64,000 bases of DNA from Blasia pusilla (Eukaryota). This document shows, in pieces, positions 2,458-58,599 of the stretch; positions within the stretch are counted from its first letter, which is position 1, and each line of letters begins with the position of its first letter. The stretch spans positions 49,910,001-49,974,000 of the forward strand of contig CM114271.1 of the NCBI GenBank assembly GCA_050084515.1. The letters run 5' to 3'. The position numbers were made by a program, and so were the translations under genes. Below the pieces are notes generated by a model. The model was not told the origin of the DNA. It ran no database searches and saw nothing but the letters and a program-made list of their open reading frames with translations.

Positions 2458-2498
2458 TGTCGTGTGTATACACATCGCTACACAATCCACATGGTTGG

Positions 2499-4558
2499 TG
2501 TGCGCCCCTTCATAAGTGGCTCCCATGTGTGTTAGATACTTTTAGGACTCTAGTTAGGTGAGTAGAAGGAGCTAGAACAACAATCTGCAATTTAAATGGG
2601 ATCATTGGTGCTATTTGGACCAAGATGGTGGCAGCTCACAAATCAGATTGGGATAGGAAATTAGCTTCAGCTGTCCATGCTTACAACACAGTTGAGAAGA
2701 GTACAACAAGGAAAAGTCCCTACTTCTTGGTGTATGCGTAGAACCCTCTCTCGGTAGTAGAGCTGGAGTTGAAGACTGATCATACTCTAGAAGGGCACTT
2801 CCAACCTGAAAGTGGCATAGATAGCAGGCTGGATATGATTGATGCCCTAGAGGAGGAGAGAAAGGCAGCATTGGAGAAGACCAAGGCAGTTCAGCAACAA
2901 AGGAAGATGAGGTTTGATAACCGAATAAAGCATGATCCAGTGAAGGATAGGGACCTGGTGCTGATGTATGATAGTCGACACCAAAAGTTTCCAAAAAAGC
3001 TGCACATTCGACTGCTTGGGCCTTAGCAAGGGAGTGTGGAGTGTGGAACAAAGCATCAAGGGAGTGATGAGAGCAGGTGGAGCTGAAGAGCATCCAAGGG
3101 AGTGATGAGAGCAGGTGGAGCTGAAGAGCATCCAAGGGAGTGATGAGAGCAGGTGGAGCTGAAGAGCATCCAAGGGAGTGATGAGAGCAGGTGGAGCTGA
3201 AGAGCATCCAAGGGAGTGATGAGATCAGGTGGAGCTAAAGAGCATCCAAGGGAAGCTCGAACCAGCTTGAGAAGAAGCAAGCATGGGAAGAATGTAAAGG
3301 TAGGTCTTACCTTCAAGCATGTCCAAGAGACAAGTCGAGCCTATGCCATCAATGCTGCTCAAGAGACTTTAGTTAGGACAGGTTCAGAAGTAGATGAGGT
3401 AGAAATTTCAGGCAGTAGATGCCTTGGAGTAGATGCTTAGGGGGAGGTAGATTTGTAGAAAGGTAGGAACCCAGAATGCCAGAGAAGCCCAAGTGGGAAG
3501 AGGGCTCTCAGCTTCACTTATAAATACTCAGTTGGGTTTGCTTGAAGGCGGGCATATACATGGTGTTGGCTAGTAGACACTCGATCTCTTGAGCCAAGCT
3601 AACCAGTAGAATTATGTGCTCCCAGATCTAGGTAGTATGTAGTGTGCTTGAAGGGGGCTGAGACTAAGAAGGTCTCCCATGTACTCGATGATTTTGTGAT
3701 ACACAAAAGGTAGCCCTATGAAATGAGTTCACTCCACTGCCCTGTATCTGAGTATGTGCAGGATTGAGTGATGAGTTGGGGGGCTTGATGAAGGGAGATT
3801 CTTGGAGCTGATTCAACTAATCATTCAAAAGTGTAGTGAGTGGACAAGAGGCTATACCAGTAGAGGGGAGGCAAGCTTGGGTTCCAAGATTGTGCTTCAC
3901 CAAGGTGTGCTTGGAAAGCTTGCTGTTCTGCCCACCTGAGCTTGGCCTTTGACACCAATCACTGATTACTTCCAGGGTGTGACAACCTAGACTTCCAGGT
4001 CTGGTAAGTGATAAGAGTTAGTGAGTGGAGAGAGAGAGAGGGTCATGCTTGAGCTCCCCTATAGGTAGAAGACCATGGGCTCAGCCTGTTAAGTCTCCTA
4101 CTACCTGAATAAGAAGGGAGAACAAAGGATCAGCAAGGTAAGAGGAGAAGAAGAAGGTGATTGCACTACCTGATCGGTTAGGAGTTGGGTGTACTTTAGA
4201 GGATGTCCTTGGTACATTCAACTAGTCCAAGGCAGCACATTGGAGGACCTTATGCTATCCTGGTCATTCTTGACTGTGATTTCTAAGTAGAGTGTGCTTG
4301 TTGGGTTCCACTGGCCACTCCACTCAAAGCACTCAAGAGAAAGAAAGGAGTTTTGGTTAGTAGGGTGAGGACATGATTGTGATACTGAAGTGGAGAGAGT
4401 TTCTCCAGCCTCTTAAGGTAAGGAGGTGGGGCTTAGAGCTGTTAAGGAGTAGATCTGATCTTTTGATCTGGCCCTAAGCTCTTACATCGGACCGAACTAG
4501 TGGAACTAGCAACATTTTCACCTGGGTTGTGTACTGCCATATATTACGTGGTGAGACA
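2499..4558. mobile_element. 2060-bp TG...CA element (solo-LTR-like) with 5-bp TSD
   Basis: Begins TGTGCG and ends GAGACA. Flanked by GTTGG at 2494-2498 and 4559-4563. The empty site can be reconstructed from the copy near 19240. Confidence 0.85.
3052..3253 (+). repeat. 38-bp tandem repeat, about 5 copies
   Basis: GGAGTGATGAGAGCAGGTGGAGCTGAAGAGCATCCAAG starts at 3061, 3099, 3137, 3175 and 3213. Confidence 0.95.
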
Positions 4559-5092
4559 GTTGGTCACATCTACATACCACACAATACGGATCTTCCCCAA
4601 CATACGGGTAGATCCACACATAAATAAAATACACTCTTGCGTATAGACCGAGACCCCACAAAAAATTCAAGAGTAGTAAAAATGACTCACCCGGCCTAAA
4701 AGTCCACTCATGAATCTATATCGGCATATCAAACCACATCCACTATGAGGAAATTTGGACGCTAGCACCCTAGCTCCTACACACACATACCCACAGACGT
4801 TTATGCAAGAGAGGCGCTCCTAAGGCTCAACATGAGAAAGACGGCTTGAGAAATTCATCTTCCTCACTCTCATATCCTTGGCAAGAGCCAAAAGACTCTT
4901 CCTCCAAAAATAGCCCTACTAACGGTAACATGCGTGCACAGGATACCGGGTAATCGTTGACTTGGTCAACGGGTCACCTCACGGACTAAAACCAAAATAG
5001 GGAAATCGTCAAAAAATGACAATCTCGACACAATAGACCTGTCGCCAACCTCATCTGACATCTCGGGACAAAATTACAACCGAACAACCCGC

Positions 5093-5705: not shown

Positions 5706-8340
5706 GACTGGATATATCATATGACCCAAGTACTCAATCTCGTTGTAGAAGAACGTGCACTTGCCTGGATGTAGCTTCAGCCCATGCAAGTGCAATCGTC
5801 AAAACACCTCCTCTAGATGTCGCTCATGCTTCTCAACCGTGGCGCTAAAGACTACGATATCATCAATATAACACCTAGAAAAATTGAGACCTGCCAAGAT
5901 CCTATCCATGACCCTTTGAAACTCAGTTGGGGCGTTCTTTAACCTGTCCTCCAATTTGATAGGCGGTTGATGGTATCCGACTCGAAGATCTAACAAATTG
6001 AAGACCTTTGCATGCCCAATAACATCAAACATCTCCTCAAGAGTGGGCATGGCACACCTATCGGACTTCATGTGCCAATTGATAGGTCTTTAATCTCCAC
6101 ACATCCGCCTATCTGTCCAGTTGCCATGCACATCGTTCTTGGCGGGCATGATAGTGGCAGATGCATACTCTCCATGCAACATTTCCACTAGTCTTGCGCC
6201 AACCAAGTCCTGGATCCTACTCTGAATCAGAGCCCTCTCCATGTCATTGTACCTATAGGGTCGTTGGAAGATCGGCGTGTCACTTGACAACTCATTGCAG
6301 ATCCATGGACCCTTTAGCGTATCGAAATCCTACATACTAAATGCAAGAAAACTCCTATAACTCCTAAGGAACTTGTGTATCCGGCGTCGCTCTCCTCGTG
6401 TAAACTTAGGGCCCATATATGGCTCCCAAGTCTCCATCGTGACTATAGTAGGACTCTCCGGCACGGGTGCCGGTGGTTGCTATGGTGTAACCCCGTCTCG
6501 GACAACAAAACTCGACTGCTCCCTTGCAACCAACTGCAAAATCAGATCTCCATTTGTAGTACCCAAAACCACGCTCAATGCTGTGGCTACCATCTACTGG
6601 CATACATGCAAAACATCCCAAGAAGTCCAACGATGTCTCTCCCAATCATCCTTGGTGTGTCGATCTCTTCGTGTCTCGCCCCTGGCCACTACCTCAACCG
6701 TTTCGGTAGGCATGGGGCTCACCAACGCAAGTGTGATCTGTCGCATCCTCAAATGACGTTGCTCAGCTACTCCTAAGCTGAAAATCCATATCAAGCAGTT
6801 TAGGTCTATCGCCCAACCCGAGACATGACGTCTTGATGCCTCCGATAGTGACGGTATTGCCGTCACTCCTATGGGGAATCCCAACACTCACTCTCGCTCA
6901 CCGGCGTGGGGCTCCACCAACCTCTGTACTTGGTCATTCCAAACCAAGCCAGGTGTGGCTTTCTTGAATGCATACAAAGCGGGAAAACTCACCAATGTGG
7001 GAAAGGCTACTCGTGGCATGCCAATCCTGTTGACCACAGTCAACGGCGGTCGATCATCGTGCCTCATTGCCTATGATCGACGGCCCAGATCCAATATAGT
7101 TTCCACCAACAAATCGGAGGGACGCTCCACTCTCGCATAAGCCCTCCGCAATACCTCATTTGGTACCAAGTTGGTCCACCAAAGACGCGGGCGGTATGGT
7201 CTAGAACCTACACTCGCTGCATCTTACAAAACTGCAAGGCCTATCCATACGCGCACGTGATGTGCACTTGTCACCACGCGGGACCTCGAATCGCCCAGAA
7301 TCGACGCATTCTTCAAAATGTATGTTGGAGAACGAGGCTAATGCTTATGTAAATGTCGCAAGATCTGCATCATCTCCCAAAACAACCTGGACCGAGTATC
7401 AGCTAACCCACTACCTCGTCCAACACTCGATTGGCCCTGACGCGACCAACCAGAAATGACCAAGTCTATGGTCCCTACCCGCTCCAAGTCCTGCGCCCCT
7501 AACAATGAAATGTCCCTCGGTAGGGAATGTTGGTAACCCTGAATAGCGGACGCAGAAAACTAGTCGGGAAAACAGAGGCGTAACTGCGCCACATGGTGAA
7601 GTGAAGCGTGCCTTGCAACATCATCAATCTCCACATACAAGTACTGTTGCACACACACTCTAGTGTGCAAAACAACAGCTAACCCAGTGCCGAACCCTCC
7701 AAAAGAGATCCAACACCCAAATACCCTCCTCTAGGATGCACCACATAATCGGGGTGGTGTCCAAAGGGGTCATAGCATCACTCATGCCTACCTAGGGTTC
7801 CTCTGACCAGTCACACTCTAGTGAAAACATCTTGCTCTATGCGGTTTGCACATGCTTAGTGGCTAAGCGTCCAAGCTCCTCATTCGAGCCCCAAAGCAAC
7901 ACCTCTCCTCCAAGGACTGATGCGGCTACCATAACACTCCTCTCCATAGAAATGTCAGAATTGGGAGTATCCTCTACATGGACATGTCCCTCAATCAAAT
8001 CACTATGCCAAGTGATGGCACTGCTAAATGTTGCTAAGGTCGCCATCTCTCTTGGCTGTCACTCATCACTGTACCTGTGAATCGAATGGGTAATGAGTCA
8101 AAGGCTCCCATCACCTGACTGCCATCCTGGTCTGTAGGACGCTCACTCCTCCTAGTAATCTAGGGAAAACCCCATCGGGTATAACACTACTCCACCAACC
8201 AAGACGTCGTAGGACTCTGCATCAGTCACTATCGCCTTCTCTTCCAACAAGTACTTCCAAGCCAAAAGAGCATGTATGTTCTTTCGAGAGACCACAAAAA
8301 CCAATAAGCGTGTCATATTTAGCCTCCCATCTATCACAAC
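5706..8340 (-). mobile_element. Decayed Ty3/Gypsy pol fragment: protease end, DNA methyltransferase, RT
   Basis: Protease C-terminus (IVTDAESYDVLVGG, 8152-8337). RT motifs PIFQRPYRY, RRMCGD, LDLRVGYHQ, LKNAPTEFQRVMD, YIDDIVVFS and EYLGH (5706-6300). Confidence 0.9.
6770..7730 (-). pseudogene. DNMT3-like C5-cytosine methyltransferase domain embedded in Gypsy pol (decayed)
   Basis: Manual translation gives C5-MTase motifs in order: I VLDLF/GGFGTGL, II YVEID, IV DLVISGWSRQG, V DTRSRLFWE, VI YILKNA, VIII DAASVGSRPYRPRLWWTN, IX ERE*VLGFPIGVT, X RRHVSGWAIDL. One frameshift and several stops. Confidence 0.88.
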
Positions 8341-9950: not shown

Positions 9951-9954
9951 AGAA

Positions 9955-18920: not shown

Positions 18921-19285
18921 GCAGGCTTGAGGTGTATGTTGTGCGGATCTACGAGGGGTGTAGCCACAATGTTGGTATGTGATGGTTGGTCTCGAGGGTG
19001 GCATATGTCATATCTGACCCCCCCTCTTGATGTTTCCACAGGACGATGGATGTGTCCAAGATATGTATAGGATAGTAGATCATGTCAGAGAGATGTGATA
19101 TTTTCTATCTGGAGTTAAGGGGGATCCAACTTCCAGCTAGGGGGCCGGTTGTGTGATCTCCATATAGATGTATGAGTTGATTTTTGTACATGTGTAGATC
19201 TACCCGTGCGTGGGGAAGATCGGTGTTATGTGGTGTGGATATGACCAGCGATGTATGTTGTGTAGCGATGTGTATGCGCATGACA
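18921..19285 (+). mobile_element. 3' end of a PHD-Gypsy element: PHD-finger remnant plus partial LTR
   Basis: AGLRCMLCGSTRGVATMLVCDGWSRGWHMSYLTPPLDV..GRWMCPRY (18921-19064) is homologous to 49959-50093. The LTR ends ...GCGCATGACA at 19285. Confidence 0.85.
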
Positions 19286-29400: not shown

Positions 29401-29611
29401 TTGAGTATCATAATAACTATTCCATTCCTTTCTAATCTTTTTAATTTTAGATTTAATTTTTTTGTCCCATGTTCTCTTTTGGTTCACTTAAAACACCAAT
29501 TTTGACAAATGTGGTGTTTTAGAAAACCCGGTTTTGTTCTAATATGATTATTACATTCTAGGACATAGTATAATGGGAGTACAACTTAGGTTTTACCCTC
29601 TTTGTCAACCA

Positions 29612-30240
29612 TGTTTATGGCTAAGGGTTTATGGCTTAGGGTTTAGGGTTTTTTTCTTAGGGGTTAGGGTTTAGGGTTTTTGTCCTAGGGATTAGGGTTT
29701 AGCGTTATTGGCTTATGGTTTATTTCTCGGGTGTAGGGTGTTTGGCTTACGGTTTTGGATTTTTGGCTTACGGGTTAGGGTATAGAGTTGTTGGCCTGAG
29801 GTTTAGGGGTTTTGTCTTAGGCTTTACGGATTTTGGCTTAGGGATTAGGGCTTAGGGTTTATTATCTAGGGTTTAGGGTTTATTGCTTAGGATTTAGGGT
29901 TTAGGGTGTTTGGCTTAGGGTTTAGGGTTTTTTTGCTTAGGGGTTAAGGTTTAGGGTTTTTGGCCTAGTGTTTAGAGTTTTTGGCTTAGGGGTTATATCT
30001 TAGGCTTCAGGGTTTTTGGCTAAGGGGTTAGGGTTTCTTGCCTAGGGTTTAGGGTTTATGGCTTAGGTTCTAGGGTTTAGGGTGTTTGGCCTTAAGTTAG
30101 GGTTTATGGTTTTCTGCTTGGGGGTTAAGGTTTAGGATTTTAGGCCTAGTGTTTAGAGTGTTTGGCTTGGGGGTTAGGATGTAGGGTTTTTGGGCTAGAC
30201 TTTAGGATTTTTAGCTTAAGGTTAGGGATTTTGGCTAGGG
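29612..30240 (+). repeat. Interstitial degenerate telomere-like array (TTTAGGG variants)
   Basis: Dozens of TTTAGGG/TTAGGG units interleaved with TTTTGGC-type spacers. Confidence 0.9.
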
Positions 30241-30599
30241 AGTAACTATGATTTAGAGTGTAGTCTTACTTAGGGAGACTCCGTTTTCATCTAAAGTCCA
30301 AATAGATGAATTAAACTACATGTTGCAAGCTGGAGCACGAATCTAGACAATAAAATTTAAAATGGGAAGAACATGGAATCCGATTCCAATTGTGAAAGCT
30401 TCTACAAAACAATTTTATTCTCCCAAAGACAATAGAAAAAATTTAAAATGGGAAGAACATGGAACAATAATTGTGTTGTTGTTACGATTCTTCAGTATTA
30501 GGTTAGTGCAAAAGTTAAGACTTTCAAAATTACAAAACAATTTTATTCAATAATCCATTTTTTTCACTACTATTCTTCTCCCATTTTCTTACATCCCAA

Positions 30600-40030: not shown

Positions 40031-43000
40031 AGATATCCGTTCATTTCTCGATTCAATGCTATCAAATTGAGCATAGATCCATACTTCCGGTGCAATTGAA
40101 TGTGTGGCTTTTATTGCGGGGCGGGAGATGTCATACAGAGCTGGATTCGTGAGTGCCCTTCATGAAGGTATTCGGTTATTCTATCATTTCTAGAAGTGTT
40201 GTGTGTGTCTGTGTTTAGGTTTTAGGGTTTGCAACTACACTTCCGATTCACACCTACATGTAGAGTTATGAAAATGGTTTAGGGAATTGGATTCAGTTAT
40301 CATTTGTTTAACTAGATCTATAGTTCCAATTCATAGGTACTCCCGACCGACAGAAGCTGGCTTTGGTTGGTCGGGAGTACCTAAGAATCGGAATTGAGTA
40401 GGAACTTTGGCTGATTCGAGTGATGTTGTCACAGTGCAATTGCAGCGTTGAGGCCTCCAACCTCCTTACTGCATTTTAGATCTGAATGCGTTTTGCAGCT
40501 CACTAGCCGTGCTTTTCGAGGAGTTAGGTCACTGGTCTATATATCTATTGCGTTTGTGGTTTAAACTTCTGTCATTTAGTTCCAGCTTACTAAAGTAGAT
40601 AATGATGGAGGAATAAGGAGAAGGAGGAACATGAAAGGCCGCAATACTTGGCTTCTGACGCTTGGGTTTCTTCCTGACAATGTATTTACTTTCATTAAAG
40701 GGATTGACTCGTGCTGTTTTGATAACTGAAATAACGGTTAGTATGTTAAGATCTACACAAGGAACCACAAAGATTATAATCTGCCATGTTCACTCAATTA
40801 TGAACTTGAGATCCTATTGCAAGCCGTTACAAGCCTAAATTGGTTATGGTTCGAATGTAGTACCCCTTCAAATGCTGAAATAGTCCGTTCAGACGTGGTA
40901 ACGTTTCTGATGTAGTAGCCTTTCCGATGTGGTAAGGATCTAGACGTAGTACCCTCTCGGATATCGTAGTGCTCTAGCCTTGTAGCCCTTCAAGTTTGCA
41001 TGAGCGACACACATAGTAGCCCTTCAGGCTTGGAAACCCATTAGACTTGGAACCCCTTGAGAAGGTATCACGGCTTCTAACGTCATGGCGATTCAGACGT
41101 AGTACCCCTTCGGCGTTGTGCTAAGTTATTTGTACTGCCGACAAAGACTCAATCATGAAGAATTGCTACCGTTCACTACTTCGTGTTTCGATTGGTAGAG
41201 GTTTGGATGCAGTAATTTTGCAATTTCCCTACAAATGCATTCTATTGTAGCCACAAGAGCCGACATAGTTTTGGTGTGCGAATGTACGCTAGTAACTAAT
41301 ATGGAAGTTTAATTGAACCGCGAGGGTAGATTGGAACGTATGTAGGGGTAAGGAATCTTGTAACACAATCAGGCTCCTGTCAAATTTCCTCCTCTTTCAG
41401 ACAGTGAGTTTCTTACCAAGGTGGACGTCATCCTTGTTGGGTTCAGTCGGGTGTTGGGGACATTATCATTGTAAGTTTTATATCAATTCCTAGATTTGCG
41501 AGAGAAACGGAAGGACAACTGTTGATACGTTTCTAAATCAGGAGTTTGAATTGAATCTGGTGGTGTCAGCGGACCCCTTGGTTTCAAAATCTTTAGCTCA
41601 TTGAATTCCATCGTAGACCAGAGCAACAATTGCCCAAGGGATCAAGTTCCGAAATTCTTGAGATTGTGCAGATCTCCACTTTCCAATTCACCAAGGTTAG
41701 TTCATGTCTACATATGTTTGCACTAAATTGATTTATGATGAGTACTATATTGCTTGATTCTTGCCTATCGTGTGTGTTAAGAAAAGGGTTTTCTCTCCTA
41801 TGTTTAACGCATTGCTTACGAATTCTCGTGTTGCAGTAAAGTTTTTCGGTCTACAATCATGGTTAAGAAGCAGATTCTTACTCGGAAAAAGGTTCTAGGC
41901 GCTTTGATTCGCGATCAAAGAAAGCCTTTCATTTTGAATTTCTTAAAGGATGAACTTTAGAATATCGGCTGCGCAAGGGATGTCCAAAATAAGACTGAGT
42001 GTCAAACTTGCAAGGAAGGAGAGCGTAATTTTGGATGGAATGCGCTTGATTGGATGTAGCATTGTTGCTAGTGACACGTTCTTGGTGTTGCATCTTTTAG
42101 ATGCGGATAATGAAGAGAACTATCATGTGGATGTTACTCAATCCGTCATTTATCGAGCCGAACTGAATTTGGGAGTTCAAACTCTTCTCTCCGATGTCCA
42201 AAAGCTAGTGATGAGAGGTCTTGTTTCATCGGACATTTAGGACATTGGTCCATTTTTTAGAGAGGTGCTTCGGGTAGCTACCACCGAGTTTGCGTTACCA
42301 TTGATGGTACAAAAAGAAAAAAAGGTAGCGGGTATTGGGTTGGGAAAAGACACGACATGTGCTCGTCTAGCAAAGGCTATAGACTCTACGTTGGAAATTG
42401 GGTCTATTGTGATAGTCCAGGAAAACAAAGTCGCCGAGCTTGATGCAAGGGCAACACAAGAACTCATCGTAACAACCATCGGAACAGTGCTTGCTGGTGA
42501 GCGGGCAAGAAGTTGCCCATTTTTTCCTTAATGAGTACGACCTGCACGAATTGAAGCATCATCTTTTCGGCTACATCATCGCAAAGGCTAAGGATTGGGA
42601 TGTGGACATGTGCAGTTTGGACAAGGAGTATCAGAAGAAGAATTACGATAAGTTCCAAGCTATCTACCAGACCCTAAAAGAAGATCTCCAAATTGATTTC
42701 ACGAGGATTGTTCTGACTTCGAGGAAGGGAAGGTTTAGTTGAAGTAACTTTGCCGATGGACTCAATAAGTATATTATGAGGTTCAGGAAGAGATTACCGA
42801 CCTTGCCACGGATGAGACACTCTTGCGATTGAGCAGGAAGAGACCTCAGCGAGGGTAATAGGTAGCTGAAATGACACTCTATTTTGATGCCATTGGGTAC
42901 ATTTGTAAATAGAACGTGAAATGTAGCATATTGAAGTGGATGGATTAAAGAAGTATACTGCCCAGGTTTGAGCACGTTGATGTCATAGATATAGCAAGGG

Positions 43001-43329: not shown

Positions 43330-44470
43330 CATTGCCATCCTCTAGATCAATTGGAACTATAGTTCCAATAAGCCCGCTTGTGAGATCCCTTCCTTGGGAA
43401 CAATTGTAGAATCGGAACCGTAGTTTCGATTGTGTCCCAAACTGCCGCGCCCGCTGAAAGTCATTTAGAGCCAAACTAAGTAGGAGTCCAATTGGATCCT
43501 AAGATCCAATTCAGCCGTAGAAGGCGTTCGGTAAAGGGAAATCCCCATCCTCGATTGGAACCGTGGTTTAGAATTATCTGCTCCTTGCATCCCAACAGGT
43601 CGGCAACAAGTGGAGAATCAAAACGTTAGTTCCAATTGTGTCCAAGACTGCCGTGCCCGCTGAAGGTCATTTGGAGCCAAACTCAGTTGGAGTCCTATTC
43701 GATCCTAAGATCCAATTCTGGCTGCAGAAGGCGTCCGGTAAAGGAAAATCCCCATCCTCCATTGGAACTGTAGTTTCAAATTGCGTGCTCCTTGCATCCC
43801 AATAAGTCGGCAACAAATAGGGAATCGGAATGCTAGTTCCGATTGTGTCCTAGAGTGTCGCGCCCATTGAAGGTCATTTGGAGTCAAACTTAGTCAGAAT
43901 CCAATTGGAACCTAAGATCCAATTCCGGCCGTAGAAGTCGTCTGGTGAAGGAAAATCCCCATCCTCGATTGGAACTGTACTTGCGAATGGCCTGCTCCTT
44001 GCATCCCAATAGGTCGGCAACAAGTGGGGAATCAGAACCTTAGTTTCGATTGTATCCCAAACTGCCGCGCCCGCTGTAGGTCATTTGGAGCCTTACTTAG
44101 TCAGAGTCCAATTGGATCCTAAGATCCAATTCCGGCCGCAAAAGTCATTCGGTAAAGGGAAATTCCCATCCTCGATTGGAACTGTAGTTCCGAATGGCCT
44201 ACTCCTTACATCCCAATAGGTCGGCGGACATTGGAGAATCGGAACCTTAGTTCTGATTGTGTCCCAGACTGCCTTGTCTACTGAAGGTCATTTGGAGCCA
44301 AACTTAGTCTGAGTCCAATTAGATCCTAAGATCCAATTCTGGCCACAAAAGGCGTCTGGTAAAGGGAAATCCCCATCCTCAGTTGGAACTGTAGTTCCAA
44401 ACGGCATGCTCCCAAGATCCCAATGGGTCGGCAAGAAATGTAGTTCTAAGCTCACTTGGAACTGGAGTGT
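43330..44470. repeat. Tandem array, about 207-bp monomer, about 5.3 copies
   Basis: AAGATCCAATTC at 43501, 43707, 43914, 44121 and 44328. Confidence 0.93.
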
Positions 44471-46947: not shown

Positions 46948-48354
46948 ACACCATTGGCTCATACAATCCGCATATTACTTGTTATGGGCGTATATCGGAA
47001 TGTGGTGGTAACCACCTCCAAATTCAATGTTGATTAATAAGTGCAAAAATTCAGAAAATGCAACACATAATGCTTTGGCTAGCCTTAGATGTTACAAACC
47101 ATCCATTGCAAAGAAAGTGCAAGGCTCTAGAGTAAGGATACAAGTAGTAGTTTTTGTGCAGGACATGGAGAGTGTCCCGCACAAAAACTACTCCTTTCAT
47201 TTTGCAACTCATGACCATTTCAACCAATAAGATTGCTCGCTGCTAAAACAATAACTTTTTTAAAAACTTAATAACTTTAAAATTTTATTATCATTAAAAA
47301 AATTCAATGATATCTTGAGAAAAATATCGCCCCATTTGAGCCAGCGCATCGCACATAGAATTCAGTATACTCATCCAAAAAGAAATCAGTGAGTAGGTGT
47401 ATGCCAGTTTCGTTACAATCGTAGACAATGTCCGGGAGAACGGGGTTACGTGTTGAGCTGGCCGGGAGAAATTGAGAATTTACGATTCTGTTCGTCATTT
47501 ACCGGCCAAAGACCGAGGGTTGAGGGAGGGTGTCCTTTGTATTCGTATCTGTTTAGGTGGCTGAAACGACGAAAACTTCAAAAATCCACGCTCGGTTTAG
47601 TAGAGACCGGAAATGTGCCCGTTGTCACGAAAAAACTCCCCGGACCCTGGTCCTAGACTCCTGCAGAGGTCCATCGGACTTGAAACGACTCTGATTCATA
47701 TATCATTAATACGTTTGACCTTAGATGTACGTTATAAAGTCAGCAACAATGATTTGTACACGTCTTGGCTCCCAACCTGACACGCGTCGTCCGGGAAATT
47801 TGCACAGGTAAACAATACAATTCGAACAATATTGATCCTTACCCTATACACAGTGTTACACACTAATACCAGATACCGTGTGATCAGATTATCTATATTC
47901 TTCTTTCGTCTGTGTACATTCTGTGTTGTAGGGACTCCCGTGCATGGCACAGGAGTCTAGGGATTGCGCCTTATCTTGCTCCCAGTAGAATAAGAAACAT
48001 GTCAATCGGGGAAAACATTAAGAAGGCACTCATTAATATAGATTTGTGGTTTTTAGATTAGCAGCCCTCGAATTCCTCTCGCTTCGATTCGCACGGTGTA
48101 CCCTCCTACCTCCTCCCTCGAATCGGAGCTATTCTACACTGAGCGCATTTGCATTCGGTTAAATGAACTTGATAAATCTGCGATGCGATATTTGTTCCAA
48201 GCTTCATGTATTGCATGCAGTTCGTATCGGCTCCGCAGCGGCGACAGCACTCCGAAACAAAATGATAATTAGGCCGCTTTGTGCATCTGAAGCGATGGCT
48301 ACGGATTCCAAAGCATTTTTCGCACTGAACACTTGCGCGCGCCTATCTCTAAAC

Positions 48355-48707
48355 AATACTGTCGCCTCATGTGCCCATTTCGATCTGCGAAGCTTCTCGG
48401 AATGGTATGGAATTCCAATCTATGGAATTCCACTTGACTTGGACAAAAGAGTCATGCCGTAGCTGAGCTGGCACTATTATACATCATCAAAGTGACCGGA
48501 TTCAATATGAAAATCCATACTCCCATATTAGCTTGAAGTCCCGGTAGCATACTCCTAAACCGACACTTTGATATCGACTCTTTTGTCCAAGTCAAGTGGA
48601 ATTCCATAGATTCCAGGGAGGAGATCGAGTAGCATACGAACTTCAGTGGTGCACGGCTTTCCCGAGAAGCTTCGCAGATCGAAATGGGCACATGAGGCGG
48701 CAGTATT
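48355..48707. repeat. Two-arm inverted repeat (foldback)
   Basis: 48355-48400 pairs with 48662-48707 (45/46), and 48417-48453 pairs with 48576-48612 (37/37). Confidence 0.95.
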
Positions 48708-49029: not shown

Positions 49030-49647
49030 TGAGTGGATACACACATATGTGGTTCATGCGTCCATCAAGTTGAGCAGGAACATGCGGTCAATGTCGAGTA
49101 TTGTTCATGAGAGTGGCTTCCATGTGAAGAGATAGCTTTCATGTTAATCTTTATATGACGCGAGAGGCTAAGGGACTCCTTTATTCATGCTCATCTTTAT
49201 ATGACGCGAGAGATTGAGATGGTGGTGGTGGATGCTGTAGTGACGGATCCTACACGGGAGGTTGTGCCAACCCAAGTGGTGGCACAAGGGAGATTGTTAC
49301 AAGGAGGAGCGGCGGCGAAGAAGACTCTTATCTATAGTCGACTCCACGACGGACATTGGTTTGTTCCCCTAGCCATTGAGATGTATGGGGCTATGGGGGA
49401 GAGGTTTGACTAGTTCCTTATGGACTATGCTCATCATCTCCAACCGAGAAATGGGTTGTCCTTAACTACCGCGATTCTTTATTGTAGGCAACGAGTCTCC
49501 ATAGCTTTGCAACGTGCCCAGGCCAATGTGCTTTTGCGGCGGGCTCAAGCTATGGGAGACGTCGGCCCTAGAGGCCCACTTGAGAGTAGTCATAGTTCAT
49601 TAGGAGTTGCTGATATTGTTTATGTTGTTGGTGAGTTTAGTCGATAG
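49030..49647 (+). mobile_element. 3' fragment of a CRE/R2-group non-LTR retrotransposon (restriction-like endonuclease domain)
   Basis: VVDAVVTDPT...AAAKKTLIY...FVPLAIEMYGAMG...RQRVSIALQRAQA is the typical RLE C-terminal signature. One internal stop. Confidence 0.8.
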
Positions 49648-49658
49648 GAGGAATGCCC

Positions 49659-52570
49659 TGTCGTGCGAATACACATCGCTGCCAACATACATCGGCTGTC
49701 GTGCACACACATGTCTAAGATCCATCTAGCTATGAATCCTAACATCTCTACACATGAACAATTGGACAACCCCAATCGCTCCCCTAGCTAGTGGTTAGGT
49801 CCCTCTAACTCTAGATAGCCTATAAAAAAAGTCTAAATGCTATTCACCTTGTCGGTGCTAAGATTAGGAGGTCGGGGGCTATAACGCCCCATCGTTAGTC
49901 ACCCTCATGCAATCCATAATATCAAGAGTCATCTTGTATCTACTTATCACACCTGTGTACATCTGGGACAAAGCCAACGTCCCTGAGGAACCTAGTCAAG
50001 AGGCGGCGCCAAACACAACATATGCCATCCTCGAGAACTCCCATCACAAACTAGCATCGTGGCTACGCCTCTAGCAGATCCACACAACATGCATCTCAAG
50101 CCTACAGGAACAACTTCCAAGCAAAAACTTCCTCCCATCTACGTTCAAAAGATGACATGGCGCACAATCACCCACATGATCTTTCCAAATGGTACCATCA
50201 CGACCCTCTAAAACAAGGACTCTTGAAGGTAAAATCTCTCGCACTCGCAGAATAGTGCATCCCGCCGTCACGTCCAATGTCGTCGGCGTTGTATGTTGTA
50301 GGTAGACATAATCCCCAGGATGGAATCGCCGAATCTGTGGTCAATAGCCTCCTCCACGCGTAGTCGTGTGCCTCAGAGTATCGCGATGTTGAGCGATAGC
50401 GTGGATCTCAAATGCCATAGGAATGACTCTCCAAAAGAGCTCAGCCCGATGAGAACACGCTTGCACCCATACATGTGGATCGTTGAGGTCAAGTACCTCA
50501 ACCACATCTTGTCAAATTGACGACGGTAATTCTAGCTCTCTCCCATGGAGCAAGAAATACGATGAAAATGATGCCAAGGATGCCTGCCGACTGAAGCGGT
50601 AACCCATCCCCAACCACGGCAACGGTAGGTCCCAATCTCCTAAGTGTCCTCTCTGCAGTCCATACTTACGCAATCCTCTCTTCACCGTTTGCACAACTCT
50701 CTCTGCCTAACCATCTGCCTCCGGATGATCTCGAGAAGTCGTACGATGATCTATTAGTGCCTCATCACACAAGGCGTGAAAGTCACCCCTAAACTCAGTA
50801 TCGTGGTTTGTCAACACATTTGTTGGTTCCCCGAAATGACTAAGCACTCTATCAAGAAATGCATAAGCCGCTCCCTCACTCGACCTGTCCAACAACGATA
50901 CCAACTCTATCCACTTGGAGAAGTGCTCCACCATGACCAACACGTACTGACTATGGCATCCCGTCAATGGTAAAGGCCTTGCAAAGTCTAAACTCTAGCG
51001 ATACCCTAATCCCATGATCGTAAAGGATGTAAGTGTGGTGTCGGAGCATTGAATGATGCCCGCACCCTATCACATACAATGCATTTGGCTACAAATTTTT
51101 GAACATAAGTGTGCATACGACGCCACCAATACTGAATGTGAATCAAGCTATACGTACGCTTGACTCCAAAATGCCCAAACTCCTCGTGAGCATGTCTCAC
51201 GACTTGTGCTCGCTGGGAAGGATGCGGCACCATCCGCACTCGTCCATCCTCCCAAACTCAAAGCACATGTGTCCCCTCCCACATGAACCTCCTGACCCGC
51301 CGTAGGACTCGATCCTGCTTCTAGCACACATCGTGCTCGCTAAGACACCAGTGTGCGCGTACTCCAAGACCATCTCATCATCGTGAATGTCTAGAGTCCC
51401 TGTCGACTCCTCACTAGCATCTGGATCTGAGGACTCACCATCCAACCTCCCTACTGCTGACCTGACATAGCCAACAAACACAAATAGGCATATGCGTGCC
51501 AAACCGACACCATCTCCTCATCACTCTCACCATGCCACCGCGCTCCACTTGCATCGCTTTGGCTCGTGCATGGGTTACGACTCAACCCCTTCCGCATCCT
51601 GGTTCAGATATCCTGGGCGATGGACAACCTGAAAATCGTACTCATGCAACAGGAGTGACCATTTGGCAAGCTTCCGACATCTCGCATAATCCAAACCAGC
51701 CAAAATCCTATCCATAACTCGCTGAAAACCGGCAAGGGCGTTCTTCAACCCAAATGGTGAGAACCGCCACTGGTACAAACAATCTCTCCCGAAAGGATCT
51801 ATCCCCCAAAATGCTCTCTTTTCCCTGTCCTCCACTCAGATGGGCAACTGATGATAGCCAGCACCGAGATCCAAACAACTGAAGATCCTTGCATGCCCCA
51901 TCGCATCAAAGATCTCCTTTAGAGTAGCCATTGCATAGCGATTGACCTTTGTATGCCGATTGATAGGACCGTAATCCCCACACATCAGCCTATCGGTCTA
52001 TTGGCCATGCATGTCCTTCTTTGCCGGCATAACTGTGGCAGATGCATACTCTCCAAGCAATCTCTCCACTTGTCCAGCGTCAGCCAAGTCTCAACTCCTA
52101 CTCTGAATCAAGGCTCGCTCTATGTCGGAATACCTGTAGGGTTGTCTGAAGATAGGAGTATCACTATCCAACTCAATCCGAATACTTGGACCCTTCAACG
52201 TACCCAAGTCGTGCATACTATAAGCAAAACAATCTTTGAATCTCCACAAGAATTGCAACACTCGTCTCCTCTCCGCTTCTGTCAACCTAGGACTAATCAC
52301 CGGCTCCCAAGTTTCTCTCCCAACCACCACCCTCCTTTGGAAAAGAGGAGGGTGGTGGTTGCTAACTAGCAACCTCTGAAACAACAACATGAGCTCCCAA
52401 CTCAGACACCAACTCTCTAGGCACTCCACTATGTCCTACATCAGCGAAATGAACTCCCATCTCTGTGTGCTCTCATAACATGTCCCATGAAGTCCATGGA
52501 TGCCTCTCCATCACCATTGCGCCCTAGAAAAGAATCATCCTAACGAATGGGACCAATCAATCCCACTGAA
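49659..52570 (-). mobile_element. PHD-finger Ty3/Gypsy element: RT N-half, deleted RT/RNase H core, integrase, PHD, 3' LTR
   Basis: PIFRQPYRY, FGLKNA, HEEFGHFG...CIVC, VEHFSKW, HPEADG. PHD CMLC...CDGS..GWHMLCL...WLCPRC (49959-50093). LTR about 49659-49886. Confidence 0.92.
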
Positions 52571-55500
52571 TTCAGAGATTCTTGATCAACAAAGCACTCC
52601 TCCGCTACTTAGTAACTTTCAAGTTGGCTGCTAACACCACTCTTAAGTTTGCCACAAGCCAATCAGTGACATGCATCCAACATATAATCTCAAATTCACA
52701 AAGCTTTACTTTACTTTATCCAACCCGAGGCACATCCACCAGAGGGTCATGAATTCGTACGAGGATCCTTAAACAAGGAAAAGACCAGGCTTTACTTTTT
52801 CAACTAATCTACCTTAACTACTCTTGTTACCTCTTCACCAAATAGTCAAAACTCTTCATTGTCCTATACTTTCGTCCTACTAACCATCTCAATGTCAAAA
52901 ATTAGGTTGCTCCTTCAATTTTCTATTCTCCTCTAACAACTTGACAATGTATGTCTTAACAATGGTGTAACAGTTACACACATAATGAACACGAACCAGG
53001 AATCAATTATCAATGGCAATGAAGTAGGAGAGGTATGGATGTCCAGCATTTAACTATCGTGCACTCTAGAGGGACTAGTCGGCTTGAAAATGCATAAGTC
53101 TTGAGCCACTTTAGCTATGCATGAATCTTCTCTGATAACTTAATGTATGCTACTTCATTGCCATTGGACTGTTTTGGAACATGGGGGATTCTTGAATGAG
53201 AATCCAATATGTTTGATTGTGGACCATGCTTTTCAAATTATTCTTGAGAGTCTCACTTACACCATATTCCACTTTTGGCCTACATCTTCAAATTCGGAAC
53301 TCATGGCTAAAATCTAAGCTCTTCTTTTAAGTGGCTAAGCAAATCCACATGAGAAATACTCTAATACACTTAGTCTACTCAATCTTCAAAAAGATTCATT
53401 TAGACCCATCTCCTCTACCTTGATTGCAAGCATTTTAATGCTTATGCAAGTCTATCTTCTTCAATAACAACCCTACAACCATTTGTCTTCTTTGGAACTA
53501 CTTGAATCAATTCAAAACTCACTTACATATGAAGACTCTTTTTGATTAATTTGCGTCATAATTCAACCTCTATTCCTCTTCCCCTCTCTATGAAGCACTC
53601 CTGACCTTGAGATTTGCAAGAGGAAATCTTGGGTTGTGTCTTGCATAACTCTTAGGTTGCATATTGTCTCTCCAAGAATTCTCTTCCCCAAACTTCAATC
53701 AATCTCCCCAAGTTGCTCATCTAGACCAGATTAGTTTCTCAAGAAGCATCCCAAACAGCTCCTTAATATGGCCAAACACACCATATGATGCATCGTAGTT
53801 CATTCACTTGAGTGAATAGGGAAGGAGAGGGTCCTCTTTGAGTACTTATAGGGTTTTCTAAGGGAACCCGGCCTTTCCTATCCTCTTGGGCCCTTAAATT
53901 TTGGCCCATAATCCAAATGTTGTTTGTGATCCGCACACCCACACGCGTTAGACTATTCACCTCTCAAAATGTCTTGAGGGAGTCTTCTTGCAGATTTTGT
54001 AACTCCCAACTCCCAAAATGTCTTGAGGGAGTCTTCTTGCAGATTTTGTAACTCCCAACTCCCAAAATGCATCTTGGAGCTTGGACCCGTGTTTTTTTTT
54101 TGTCTCATGGATAGCTCCAATCTCAACTCCCTCTGTTTGGCATCTCATGCTCATTTTTTCACCCTTCGTGTTTTATTGCTAGTCTCACGACTTTCGCCCT
54201 TCTTGACTACTCTTAGTCATGTTCATCGTTACTTACTTTCGATTTGAAACTTGGCTAAAGGATCCTACACCATTCTTGCCTTTCCCTTCTCCTCACATCT
54301 ACCTAAAGTTTGCCAAGTTTGGCTTTCTAATCTATATTTTTCCGCTCCTAGCGATAAATTCTTTATTGAAACTAAAATAAATTTTCTCTCTTAAGGCCTT
54401 ACAAATTTTCCATGTTTCTATCATCTAGTCATAATTACTTTCTCCCACCCCTCTGAAAGGGCCTTGACGATGTTTTCAAAAGTTGATCCTTAATACATTT
54501 CTTGGACCCATCCCAGCTCCTATCACGATTTTGGATTGTTATACATTGGGAGATCCCGTATACCCAGTAACAAAAGAACTCCTATGACTTCCTTTCTTGT
54601 AACGCTGGAGTCAGAGAGAAGTCGATAGAATTCGTGTTTGAAGGTGGAAACTCTGGCGAGCAATACTAATCTCAAAGAAAGCGGACAACATTAAACAACC
54701 CTAATCAGCATCCGTCTACGTTCCTTGGGTACCCCGACGATTGTCAGAAAATGATGAAGAGCGCACCTGACGCAATACCATGGTAATTCTTTGGACGAAA
54801 GTAGGGACAAGTAAACAATACTGATACTCGTATCTTGTTCCTCTAAGGGAAATACTTTTGAATCTTCAACTGGCACAGGCGCTTTAAATTAGGAAAAGAT
54901 ATATGCTTGACATATGATGGTCAAGTTGAAGCTCCTCCTCCTGTATAAAATTTGGTACACCAGTAGGCGGAGTCCTCGACGAGCTAGACGAGAATCAAAC
55001 ATTGTAAACTGTCCCTAGCCCGATCTACCTCGATGATTTCATATCGAAGCATACTATACACTAGATTTTGCTGTACTACTTCTTACATGAATTGACACCC
55101 TTCTGCAGCAATCCAGCAGCAAACATTTCTGCCTATGAATTCCGGAGGGAAGATCCCTAGAATCGTGACATTACGAATTCTGCAAGTGCGCACTGATGAA
55201 TCGAAATCCTCGGAAACGTTTTCGAATGATCATAAGGACTGCCTTGACCTTTATATACATTGGAACATGAAACCCAAAGGTCCTTCATGCAATAGCTAGC
55301 TAGCTAGCTTTGGTCAACTCAACACTGCTATAACCAAATTACCCTAAACCCTGCCCCCCAGATATCTAATTCCAGAATTAGATATCTGCCGCAGAAAATA
55401 TAATTTTTGGACTTAGTGTGGTCATGGACGAATGTTATTGCGCGGTGAATGAATGAATCCAACGAAAATTTATATGAGAGCTAAGGAGGCACGTAAAGTA

Positions 55501-55874: not shown

Positions 55875-57545
55875 TCACATCATACCCAGCATGCCTCCTA
55901 GGCCTCCGAGTGCTCCGAGCCCTCCCAGGCCCCCAAGACCCCCTCCGAGTCCTCCCATCATTGAGCCAAGGTCAAGACCACCACCACCCTGTGAAAGGAG
56001 CGAAGTGAAGTCTGGTGCACCTCCGGCTCCGAGTCCTCCCATCATTGAGCCAAGGTCAAGACCACCACCACCCTGTGCAAGGAGCGAATTGAAGTCTGGT
56101 GCACCTCCGGCTCCTGAGATGAGAGACGAGTAATCTGCACCACCCCCGCCACCGTTACCTCCCCCTCCATTAATGAGAGACATAAAATTAGCTGCATTAT
56201 TCGGATTGCCGAGGATTCTGGATAAATCTGCTTGTCGCTGCTGCCTCTGCTTGAGCCATGCGTTCACATATTGATTCTGTGGTCGGAAGTTGAAATTGTT
56301 GGCTGGTGCAGGTCCAGTCGGAAGGTATGGCGTTTGTTGGGCATAAGATGCCGGCGATGGAGGTGGAAACTGGCCGCGATCTCCAGCCCTAGGTGGCGGT
56401 TGACGGTAATTTGGTTGTCCATATTGTTGAGGTAGTCCGCGATTCTGAGCTACAGGTGGAGGCGGGCCTTGTTGATTGTAACCTTGCCCTACGTAGCCTG
56501 GGCCGCTGGTTCCCTGCTGCTGCGGACCAGGAGCATTTTGAAACTGGGAACCTGGAGCTGCAGATTGTGCTGGTCTACCCGGGGCATGCTGATTTGAAGG
56601 CTGTCCACGAGGCCCTGAGTCGTCCGAGCTCCCCCAGCTGGATGTAGTTGAACTTCGAGGAGTTGTTGCGGAGGTCCGGCCGATGACAGGGGAGGCTGGA
56701 GCACGGCCGTTGGAGTTGCTCGGATTATAGACCTTCTGAGCCTGAGGAGGGTTTATAGGATTATACCTGGCAGCCTGCAGCACCCGCGGCGGATCTATTC
56801 TCGTAAATCTGCCCTGCTCCTCCTCTGCAACGTGGTGGTAACAGATCAGACAAACAGTACGCGATGAGCCTTTCATGGTCTTGAATGCTGGCCCATATAT
56901 GGGACTCATTCCGCAATGAAGACAGCTCAGGATCGTCACATGGAAGACGTTGTTCACCTCGGGCTCCTTCGTCATGATGAAATCTCCCCTCTTGATAGAC
57001 CCCAACTGCAGTTTGTCGTCGTGACAGAATGCGCACAAGTCGAAGTTGGCATTCTTGACAGACGTGAAGCAAGGGCCGCGAACGGGAGTCTCCTGGCACT
57101 CGTCGCACTGTTTCGCGAAATGGTAAACATCGTCGTGCATCTGGCTACAGCCTCCCTTTATGGCAAGCTTGTCTACTACCTCGTACTCCGAAGATATATC
57201 TCTCCTGCTCTGTGGGCCCGTAGATCTTTCGAAGCATGCCTCGCAGAGATCGTGATCCTCTCTGGTCTTGTTGCGGTAGCGTTTACCCTGAATTGGAGCA
57301 ACCCGACACTCGGCGCATTCGATCAACCGAACTTGATACGGTTTCGATGAGATGTGCCGTTCGATCTTCACAAACGCGTTGTTAGGGTCACATGCCTCGT
57401 GAGCGAAGCACTTGGTACATACGTCGTAGTCCGGACGCCTTGTGCATTTGTAGCGATGGCCGTAAATGGGCATAATGCCGCATTTGTCACACTTGACGCC
57501 ATCGTGCAGCCACGGATGCCCGATACTCCCGCGGTACGTGCTCAT
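55875..57545 (-). CDS. Intronless 556-aa protein: four tandem ZZ-type zinc fingers, P/Q/G-rich disordered region and Gly-rich C-terminal repeats
   Basis: Open ORF with four CxxC...PI.G...D(L/V)CxxC-type units. The ATG at 57545 is supported by alignment to the paralog start at 24473; the ORF-track start at 57638 is TTG. Confidence 0.9.
   Translation of the reverse strand: MSTYRGSIGHPWLHDGVKCDKCGIMPIYGHRYKCTRRPDYDVCTKCFAHEACDPNNAFVKIERHISSKPYQVRLIECAECRVAPIQGKRYRNKTREDHDLCEACFERSTGPQSRRDISSEYEVVDKLAIKGGCSQMHDDVYHFAKQCDECQETPVRGPCFTSVKNANFDLCAFCHDDKLQLGSIKRGDFIMTKEPEVNNVFHVTILSCLHCGMSPIYGPAFKTMKGSSRTVCLICYHHVAEEEQGRFTRIDPPRVLQAARYNPINPPQAQKVYNPSNSNGRAPASPVIGRTSATTPRSSTTSSWGSSDDSGPRGQPSNQHAPGRPAQSAAPGSQFQNAPGPQQQGTSGPGYVGQGYNQQGPPPPVAQNRGLPQQYGQPNYRQPPPRAGDRGQFPPPSPASYAQQTPYLPTGPAPANNFNFRPQNQYVNAWLKQRQQRQADLSRILGNPNNAANFMSLINGGGGNGGGGGADYSSLISGAGGAPDFNSLLAQGGGGLDLGSMMGGLGAGGAPDFTSLLSQGGGGLDLGSMMGGLGGGLGGLGGLGALGGLGGMLGMM
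55943..56113 (-). repeat. 84-bp in-frame coding duplication (GAGGAPDFxSLLxQGGGGLDLGSMMGGL x2)
   Basis: Units start at 55943 and 56027. Confidence 0.95.
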
Positions 57546-58599
57546 GCTGCTTTTCAGAACTCCTGAATTGGAAGAGATCCACCGCTGAAGTTCCACACTG
57601 GCAGTTTCTCCCCTGCTGGCTGGGTCACACTTTCGCAACTGATGTTGTCAACGAATCAGAAATGCTCCACGAATCACTGCACCCACCCTCCCGTCTGAAC
57701 AGCCGGAGTACAAGACCGAACACTAATATTACCAGGAATCAGAAACACGATGTCAGAATTATCACGCAGTCGAGAGCTTCAGTGATTTGAGATCTTCTCA
57801 CCGCTCCCGAAGTAATCTTCGTCGCCTACATCTCACTCTCTCCGGATCAAGTCTCTCGCAGCTCAATCCCGTGTGCGCAGTTCCTTCTCCTCTATATTAT
57901 CCTGAGTTTCCCGGATAAGCACTGGCGCCTGCGGACCACCCTCTTTGCGTGCATCTTAAGGCTAATGCGAGTTGACAGAAGGAGATCGCACTCACCGAAC
58001 GCACGTCAGGGGGATCGATCGATTCACAACGCGCTTAAGCTCGATTAAGTACCCGGTCCATCCGAAGTACTAATCGGACGGTCCAAAAGCAAGATCTCAC
58101 GAAACTGACTCCGCAAATTTACGAAGATTCTCATTAGACCGGGTCCGAGACTCCCAAGCAGGCTAAGCTAGGCCAACGAAGTCAACGGCATCAAACTGCC
58201 CCTAACATCTATAGCTCGCAATAGGGGCAAAGTCCTCGGGAACCGGTAGATTGCCGGTTGTGAAATATCCGCAATCTACCGGTTCACAATCGGAAGTGGT
58301 TTCCAACCGGTTTTTAAAACTCCGATTTTAAACTAAATGGAAGTTCCTCGTATCATATATTCATTTTACTAAAAAATAAATCTCAAAAGAGGACAAAGAT
58401 AGTCAAAAAATTGGCTCCCTAAACACATGTTCAACAAGCAGCACGATTAATAACTTGAAATAAATCTGGTGAGAGCACGAATGTTGGTAAGATATGAATG
58501 GATTACGAAGCGAGCGACAGCCCACCACCTCTGCACGACGTATCAATGCCAAGGCTTGTGCCCGTTGTAAGATCACTGAGATGCATTGCCGAAAATAAG

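Follow-up and report, generated by a model that had tools for sequence, protein, structure and literature searches.

A stretch of 64,000 nucleotides (nt) from the liverwort Blasia pusilla (GenBank assembly GCA_050084515.1, contig CM114271.1, positions 49,910,001 to 49,974,000 of the forward strand), here called the window and numbered from its first letter, contains three dead fragments of a single Gypsy/Ty3 retrotransposon lineage of green plants. Relatives of these fragments encode a Dnmt3-type DNA methyltransferase (DNMT) ahead of the reverse transcriptase (RT) and a PHD finger behind the integrase (INT), and in the clade of the window copies a conserved in-frame stop codon separates the methyltransferase from the RT. 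The window itself is repeat-rich, plant-like DNA in which the elements are nested and decayed.

The most complete pol region, copy A, lies on the minus strand and ends in a PHD finger, as a first-pass annotation of the letters alone had claimed. The finger follows the integrase core and its H2C2 zinc-binding domain, and its profile score of 39.4 bits, against a curated PF00628 cut-off of 24, rejects a chance pattern. The domain is nevertheless a relic: by frame inspection it stands in another frame than the integrase, has lost its fourth cysteine and contains a stop. The integrase core scores 31.8 bits, marginally below the rve cut-off of 32.6. Immediately upstream of 51673, the second half of the RT and most of RNase H (RH) have been deleted; at the joint, residues 10–226 of the related protein P0007 end at 51677 and residues 459–574 begin at 51673. 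The conserved motif that marks the tail of the first open reading frame (ORF1) in copy A (Table 1) recurs near the C-termini of the Marchantia proteins P0001–P0003. Copy A is cut off 5′ of this tail, read depth falls to about zero past 52578, and the three minus-strand frames at 52520–53001 have no Pfam match.

The second fragment, copy B, carries the end of the protease (PR), the DNMT and part of the RT, and lacks RH, INT and PHD beyond the cut in its RT. Its methyltransferase has several stops and altered catalytic Pro-Cys and Glu-Asn-Val motifs, and reaches just E 0.024 in Pfam (DNA_methylase). The third fragment is the 3′ end of a further copy, lying within coding sequence labelled Copia-like from its translation by eye. 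Its PHD, the second one reported by the first-pass annotation, is present at 18933–19064 but weaker (E 1.8e-4, 21.9 bits, under the cut-off), has three changed zinc ligands and shares 77% of its DNA with the finger of copy A over 146 nt. Both PHDs and the DNMT of the window are dead. No window copy holds both domains, as had been stated at the outset: DNMT proteins match the window only at 8331–6612.

Table 1. Features of the DNMT-PHD Gypsy lineage in the window.
Feature	Position	Strand	Evidence
B repeat of the family (about 4700–4559 and 2498–2458), split by an insert	2458..4700	-	blastn 4561–4661 vs 19247–19149, 74.5%, E 2e-8
RT, copy B, cut at 5709	5709..6473	-	RVT_1 E 6.3e-16
Stop TAG followed by CAA CCA, boundary of DNMT tail and RT, copy B	6474..6482	-	Sequence
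Decayed DNMT3-like domain with the tail of ORF1, copy B	6612..7703	-	Four Marchantia proteins at 48–54% identity, best E 1e-115
Protease end and PR-DNMT linker, copy B	7702..8331	-	41–44% identity to Marchantia P0001, P0002, P0004
Second PHD (18933–19064, decayed), purine tract (19136) and B repeat to 19285	18933..19285	+	Family 3′ fragment within Copia-like coding sequence
3′ end of copy A: purine-rich tract (from 49788), then one B repeat as far as 49659	49659..49788	-	Last 11 nt identical to the end of B2 in L008
PHD finger at integrase C-terminus, copy A, decayed	49959..50093	-	PF00628 E 6.1e-10; 50–65% identity with PHD ends of relatives
Integrase catalytic core and C-terminal part, copy A	50119..51018	-	rve E 1.7e-7; relatives at most 75% identical
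Integrase H2C2 zinc-binding domain, copy A	51021..51320	-	PF17921 E 6.7e-18; tblastn
RNase H end and RH-INT linker, copy A	51321..51673	-	tblastn with P0007
RT N-terminal half, copy A	51677..52351	-	RVT_1 E 1.4e-7; tblastn; trees
Stop TAG followed by CAA CCA (CAR-YYA readthrough context), boundary of ORF1 tail and RT, copy A	52356..52364	-	Sequence
Tail of the Gag-PR-DNMT frame with H-x-W-T-S-W-D motif, copy A	52365..52520	-	Aligned with copy B

Whether the two domains belong to one element was examined in relatives. A metagenome scan gave at least 544 matches, from which the best 80 were kept, and two loci from genome contigs brought the set to 82 (L001–L082). After setting aside 15 loci without a PHD match, 30 without an RT on the fetched DNA and 10 with less than 1400 nt upstream, 27 were testable, and a DNMT precedes the RT in 25 of them; both exceptions, L006 and L017, are truncated. 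Conversely, a PHD is present in 24 of the 26 DNMT loci that have DNA after the integrase. Both domains stand inside one set of terminal repeats in six loci (L008, L042, L046, L067, L070 and L080). The order gag-PR-DNMT-RT-RH-INT-PHD, which the first-pass annotation had pieced together for the full element, is that of the intact loci L001 and L081.

The window DNMT matches four gag-PR-DNMT gene models of Marchantia polymorpha, and a search with the window integrase returned 213 longer proteins; among the 120 listed, PF00628 occurs in 112 and PF00145 together with PF00628 in 11. The Marchantia model Mp_7g09570 matches both the PR-DNMT part of copy B and the INT-PHD part of copy A, and serves as supporting evidence only because it is a spliced prediction across a damaged locus. 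P0018 and P0058 carry DNMT-RT-RH-INT-PHD in a single ORF. Among 270 relative proteins, 56 have the order RT-RH-DNMT-INT-PHD and three DNMT-RT-RH-INT-PHD, with the order confirmed by Pfam for a subset. Some of the algal-type proteins (P0043, P0077, P0149 and P0300) also carry PF01585, the G-patch domain.

The taxonomic range is drawn from the few named proteins, which come from Marchantia, Riccia, Klebsormidium, Pleodorina and Tetrabaena. An ESM Atlas cluster (score 0.93, PHD 99%) in which Mollusca is the commonest phylum, with 24 recorded members, was not used for this purpose. L081 and L082 stem from a cyanobacterial genome bin; the two are regarded as contamination by eukaryotic DNA rather than as evidence of the element in bacteria. 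L081 is an intact element that fills its contig, whose ends overlap by 127 identical nt, so that it was assembled as a circle, probably a collapse of eukaryotic repeats. Viral contigs, scanned both with P0001 and with an alignment of pol, yielded no relatives.

The trees place the window copies within this architecture. The N-terminal RT peptides on which the first-pass annotation had based its link between the copies were found in both (in the regions of 52151 and 6270), and the RT regions are 74% identical over 411 nt. In a FastTree phylogeny of 165 RT rows the two window RTs are sisters (Shimodaira–Hasegawa support, SH, 91) within a 17-row clade (SH 99), and in an IQ-TREE analysis of 35 of those rows they are again sisters (99/91) in a 9-row clade (98/94) together with loci that bear DNMT and PHD. 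Neither of the two outcomes named in the first-pass annotation as fatal to its proposal, PHD-bearing full-length copies that always lack the DNMT and RTs from separate clades, was thus seen among the relatives and the window copies. The window DNMT clusters with Marchantia and loci L009–L058 (13 rows, SH 100). Since their RT DNA differs by about 26%, copies A and B represent related subfamilies rather than recent copies. It could be argued from the same divergence, which excludes one young family, and from the existence of a locus without DNMT (L028), that the DNMT-bearing and PHD-bearing copies of this host are separate subfamilies, each having lost one domain. This is very improbable, as copy A keeps the post-DNMT tail motif of ORF1 and the stop and has been truncated on its 5′ side, copy B breaks off within the RT and is then followed by the family B repeat, and the closest relatives of both carry the two domains.

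A sister clade in algae has the DNMT between RH and INT. By RT, the members of this post-RH type, the Pleodorina and Tetrabaena proteins among them, make up a clade of 75 rows (SH 99). A single branch of the DNMT tree (SH 97) divides 38 pre-RT from 102 post-RH domains; the tree is unrooted, and therefore one move and two captures are both possible.

In both window copies the tail of ORF1 and the RT are separated, in frame, by the same nine letters, TAG CAA CCA. The intact relatives have a stop at the same place: L001 encodes, in a single frame, 1369 amino acids (aa), a TAG and a further 1047 aa, the stop being followed by CAG TTA; L081 likewise encodes at least 1162 aa, a TAG and 1047 aa in a single frame, here with CAA TCA next to the stop. 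This TAG is the only stop in either element. Across the alignment a stop occupies the junction column in 18 of the 19 copies that cover it, and the exception, L001, reflects an alignment shift. A stop followed by CAR-YY is found at the junction in 20 loci and both window copies, compared with 4 of 292 in-frame stops elsewhere. In a separate DNMT search, the 16 best long matches are PR-DNMT proteins (15 with gag) that end 74–144 aa past the DNMT, without an RT.

Repeated deamination of a CAG glutamine codon in methylated DNA could in principle produce a shared TAG by decay. Glutamine and tryptophan columns do gain stops, in 60 of 630 cells and in up to 24% of the copies in one column, and P0188 has leucine at the stop position. 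The next column holds a stop in 6 of 17 copies, however, and the junction stop stands alone in intact L001 and L081 and terminates the 16 additional long ORF1 proteins. Decay is largely refuted by the intact loci, was rejected and retains next to no probability.

The conserved junction instead points to translational readthrough. UAG followed by CAR YYA is the readthrough signal of tobacco mosaic virus (PMC2754532). Most ribosomes would very probably end at the UAG and release Gag-PR-DNMT, while a minority would read through and append RT-RH-INT-PHD. With Gag-PR-DNMT in large excess over pol, the methylase would then enter the particle at Gag levels. Alternatively, pol could be translated from a spliced or internally initiated mRNA, the UAG being a true stop and CAR-YY incidental. 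A methionine lies just before the RT in many pol-only ORFs (P0007–P0010), an ATG lies three codons past the stop in the L005–L058 group, and the final A of CAR-YYA is missing in most copies. Yet ORF1 and ORF2 abut in one frame without a spacer in L001 and L081, the first methionine of ORF2 in L081 lies deep within the RT, and CAR-YY is retained across families whose linker proteins have diverged, which leaves this alternative with a small share of the probability. The first-pass proposal of a reader-plus-writer family holds insofar as both domains occur in the elements of the relatives, but the in-frame stop that parts them means that they are not simply parts of one polyprotein.

The termini of these elements are also unusual. 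Rather than two plain direct long terminal repeats (LTRs), the six complete loci named above have split repeats in the order A-ORFs-B-A-B, with a purine tract ahead of the first B, and copy A ends in a single B. Of the 59 loci in which 420 nt or more follow the PHD, 28 have CA-NN-TG at the joint between B1 and A2 (the pattern matched 30 times, and two off-site matches were discarded); NN is GC in 11, AC in 11 and other letters in 6. The complete loci have TG...CA ends and a target duplication of 4 bp, which is exact in three of the six, has one mismatch in two and is absent in one. The single-B loci whose 5′ flanks are long (L005, L029, L055 and L062) were found to have no B upstream. In the second clade (L033–L080), the terminal motif, 15 nt in length, is present three times in tandem at the end of the B repeat.

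The LTR terminus that had been placed at 2458 fits this scheme in part. Its sequence (2458–2499) does match 19244–19285 and has the same orientation as the DNMT copy. The reading as a plain LTR end was rejected, since the terminus closes the B part of a split repeat that continues at 4559–4700. The intervening insert (2499–4558, 2.06 kb) has TG...CA ends and a 5-bp target duplication. A further short B-repeat end lies at 29363–29404 (+), just before a tandem array, and is 88% identical over 42 nt to 19248–19289.

Tentatively, and at somewhat less than even odds, the true LTR would be B+A, and the integrase would cut the internal CA-NN-TG in circular or linear cDNA to give A-ORFs-B-A-B. Copies of the form A-ORFs-B, such as copy A, could arise by cutting at both sites or by recombination between B1 and B2. 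Membership in Gypsy/Ty3 is evident from the RT-RNase H-integrase order and the Ty3-type H2C2 and rve domains. A tyrosine recombinase of the kind found in DIRS elements is absent, its place being taken by the rve integrase, and L001 has just two long plus-strand ORFs.

In the intact relatives, the DNMT and the PHD are under purifying selection. Between L001 and L081, nonsynonymous (dN) and synonymous (dS) divergence are 0.138 and 1.9 for the DNMT and 0.088 and 1.4 for the PHD, with dS near saturation in both. The closest solved structures to the L001 DNMT are DNMT3A, DNMT3B and DNMT3C. Its catalytic motifs stand in linear order, and they are matched in 31–34 of the 38 pre-RT DNMTs. The nearest fingers to the L001 PHD are those of CHD4, PHF12, PHF21A, KAT6A, ATXR5, KDM5, UHRF1, BAZ2 and AIRE, which read the unmodified histone H3 tail. 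No chromodomain family was detected at the integrase C-terminus in the window pieces or in the 22 relatives scanned.

Reads from an organism designated A span copy A from the ORF1 tail to the B repeat (35,323 DNA and 2,022 RNA reads), mostly at less than 90% identity, and the family is therefore abundant and transcribed there from other copies. The RNA reads are strand-biased as expected of sense transcripts, with 70.6 against 3.5 in the PHD bin. As the read runs share just 0.07–0.12 of their words with the stretch, organism A may not be the host.

With slightly better than even odds, the element DNMT would methylate fresh cDNA before insertion, and copies would therefore arrive pre-marked. 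An even chance is given to the proposal that the integrase PHD, as a reader of the H3K4me0 type, recognises an H3 N-terminus without methylation and thereby keeps insertions off active promoters, occupying the same position at which chromoviruses have a chromodomain. A contrasting possibility, unlikely though far from negligible, is that the cDNA and target site of the element itself are not what the two domains act on: either the DNMT might methylate, in trans, the host or competing elements, or the PHD might only stabilise the integrase or recruit host factors. The role of the DNMT is left open by de Mendoza et al. (PMC5890265), and some post-RH DNMTs have no catalytic motifs by pattern match (ENV-type in 77 of 102). 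Against this possibility, DNMT and PHD are under purifying selection and have been kept together across algal and land-plant clades, and a Gag-fused DNMT would sit inside the particle beside the cDNA.

Taken as a whole, the window is best explained by dead fragments of a lineage with the organisation gag-zinc knuckle-protease-DNMT3-like domain, UAG, RT-RNase H-integrase-PHD; a probability of about 75% is assigned to this explanation. In the relatives, the architecture, the conserved stop and its context, the split repeats and the 4-bp duplications are observed directly. In its most complete form the explanation would make a self-marking, chromatin-steered retrotransposon of a Ty3 lineage that is old in green plants and ranges from volvocine algae to liverworts. 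UAG readthrough in the clade of the window would supply DNMT3 at Gag levels to methylate cDNA before insertion, the PHD would pick H3K4-unmethylated nucleosomes, and the DDE integrase would cut the palindromic CA-GC-TG of circularised cDNA to yield A-ORFs-B-A-B. That all of these parts hold jointly is improbable. The H3K4-unmethylated state is what host DNMT3 enzymes read via their own ADD finger.

Several points weigh against this explanation. The full CAR-YYA context is present in just 4 of the 20 loci, besides both window copies, and in 16 the sixth place is C or T. A second clade (L033, L041, L046, L059, L062 and others) and the proteins P0018, P0029, P0032 and P0058 have no stop between DNMT and RT, and readthrough is therefore not general. 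The predicted RNA fold 3′ of the stop is strong in L001, L081 and copy A (z -2.8 to -4.0) and weak in L008, L058 and copy B, and a consensus fold for this region received no covariation bonus. Inspection by eye identified no primer-binding site after A1. L028 (7324–12571) encodes gag-PR-RT-RH-INT, passes from PR straight to RT without a DNMT and has no PHD match, its lineage possibly having lost both domains. Near-duplicate assemblies (L014/L015, L041/L042, L069/L070, L072/L077 and L007/L008) are not independent, and the counts therefore overstate independence. Finally, each window copy has one of the two domains at most, and among the read matches listed no loose read end at the 5′ truncation connects copy A to a DNMT. 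The joint presence of DNMT and PHD was seen in the relatives, and would by extrapolation hold within the Blasia genome as well.

The family resembles, and is probably kin to, KnitGypsy-Dnmt3 of Klebsormidium nitens, a Gypsy element that has DIRS-like repeats and, within pol, a Dnmt3-type domain (de Mendoza et al. 2018, PMC5890265), and would extend it to liverworts. Both combine an intron-less, unrearranged Dnmt3-type domain, which in the present family has its catalytic motifs in L001 and is altered in the window copy, with DIRS-like split repeats on a Gypsy coding region, as judged against the legend of Fig. 4c. They differ in that the DNMT of KnitGypsy-Dnmt3 shares the pol ORF with the RT, an arrangement found in P0032 and the second clade, whereas the window copies and their clade have the conserved stop between the two. 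The Klebsormidium protein KFL_009030040 (P0032), with the order PR-DNMT-RT-RH-INT, is a strong match of the window integrase (E 8e-74), and its RT sister, P0028, has a PHD. P0032 lies outside the 18-row clade of the window RTs. The 38 pre-RT DNMTs form one group (SH 97), with P0032 not among the pre-RT rows listed, and the deep RT branches are poorly supported. Neither a PHD nor land-plant members are mentioned in the text or three supplements of PMC5890265, where Fig. 4c and the main supplementary PDF may show a PHD.

Readers of chromatin have been described separately in other elements. Gypsy-7a_cRei of Chlamydomonas reinhardtii encodes a PHD within Gag-Pol, for which a role in curbing harmful insertions has been proposed (PMC9940879); it is likewise a Gypsy element with a PHD finger, but has normal LTRs and no DNMT is mentioned in the text available. 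PHD fingers have been called common in Chlamydomonas elements (PMC8557442). Chromoviruses such as MAGGY have a histone-reader domain at the integrase C-terminus (10.1101/2021.11.30.470311), a position shared with the window family, which differs in its PHD and split-repeat ends. EpiLTRs, found in Cymbomonas and Euglena, are LTR elements with a chromodomain, DAM and a sister enzyme of DNMT4 (bioRxiv 10.64898/2026.05.21.726589). They likewise join a chromatin reader and a DNA methyltransferase in one LTR element, but with a chromodomain in place of the PHD and with DAM and a DNMT4 sister, and their authors set them apart from the streptophyte Gypsy-DNMT3 elements. DNMT-bearing Gypsy elements, PHD-bearing Gypsy elements and LTR elements with chromodomain and DNMT are thus already published separately. 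A link between PHD and the REXdb lineage Selgy was not borne out, the supplement of PMC6317226 giving no extra domain for Phygy or Selgy. The consulted parts of PMC6317226, PMC12344493 and 10.1101/2021.11.30.470311 do not describe an element of the window type. No literature was found on a DNMT3+PHD Gypsy element, on land-plant members or on this readthrough, in a survey without most subscription journals, Repbase and theses.

In the position of its stop the window family also stands apart. In Tca2 a stop separates gag and pol (PMC2194720). Compared with tobacco mosaic virus, Tca2, SIRE1 and murine leukaemia virus (MuLV), the stop of the window family comes after protease and methylase rather than after gag or pol. 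SIRE1 and MuLV use stop-codon readthrough. REM1 of C. reinhardtii is reportedly another Gypsy element with a PHD finger.

The remainder of the window holds further repeats. Related minus-strand frames at 55875–57647 and 22536–24479 both match the ZZ zinc finger three times (PF00569; E 8.5e-20 and 2.3e-16, respectively), are 67% identical over 786 nt and include the longest open frame of the window (590 aa); with a related piece at 48114–48378, they probably constitute a repeat family. A second, unrelated Gypsy element (9488–13468, minus strand; RT, RH, H2C2 and an integrase C-terminal match) shares about 24% identity with the DNMT-PHD family, and part of its 3′ region recurs inverted at 5093–5423. 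Next to it, 13479–14436 and 16849–17787 form a 958-nt inverted duplication of 88% identity. A DUF7869 stretch (31368–32029, minus strand; PF25273, E 4.8e-24 and 8.2e-8) extends across two frames and is likely transposon-derived. A plus-strand frame at 49200–49600 has no Pfam match and ends in a motif known from the restriction-like endonuclease of non-LTR elements; RNA reads at 49500–49613 have a strand bias opposite to that of the Gypsy copy. Tandem arrays occupy 37100–40050 (period about 151 nt), 43400–44430 (about 207 nt), 29570–30260 (about 7–21 nt) and 3019–3291 (about 38 nt).

Why retrotransposons carry their own cytosine methylases has been a standing question since 2018, and through this lineage a model land plant can be used to test it: Marchantia polymorpha has related gene models and chromatin maps. 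The position of the stop, behind the DNMT, leads one to expect as much methylase as Gag, an unusual stoichiometry that would fit self-methylation of cDNA within the particle. The split repeats, with their palindromic junction, suggest that a DDE integrase here takes a route of integration other than the standard one. In practical terms, programs that look for plain LTRs miss such elements, and counts of host DNMT genes can wrongly include their ORF1. If the targeting reading is true, the PHD would join the chromodomain as a second means of guiding insertion by histones.

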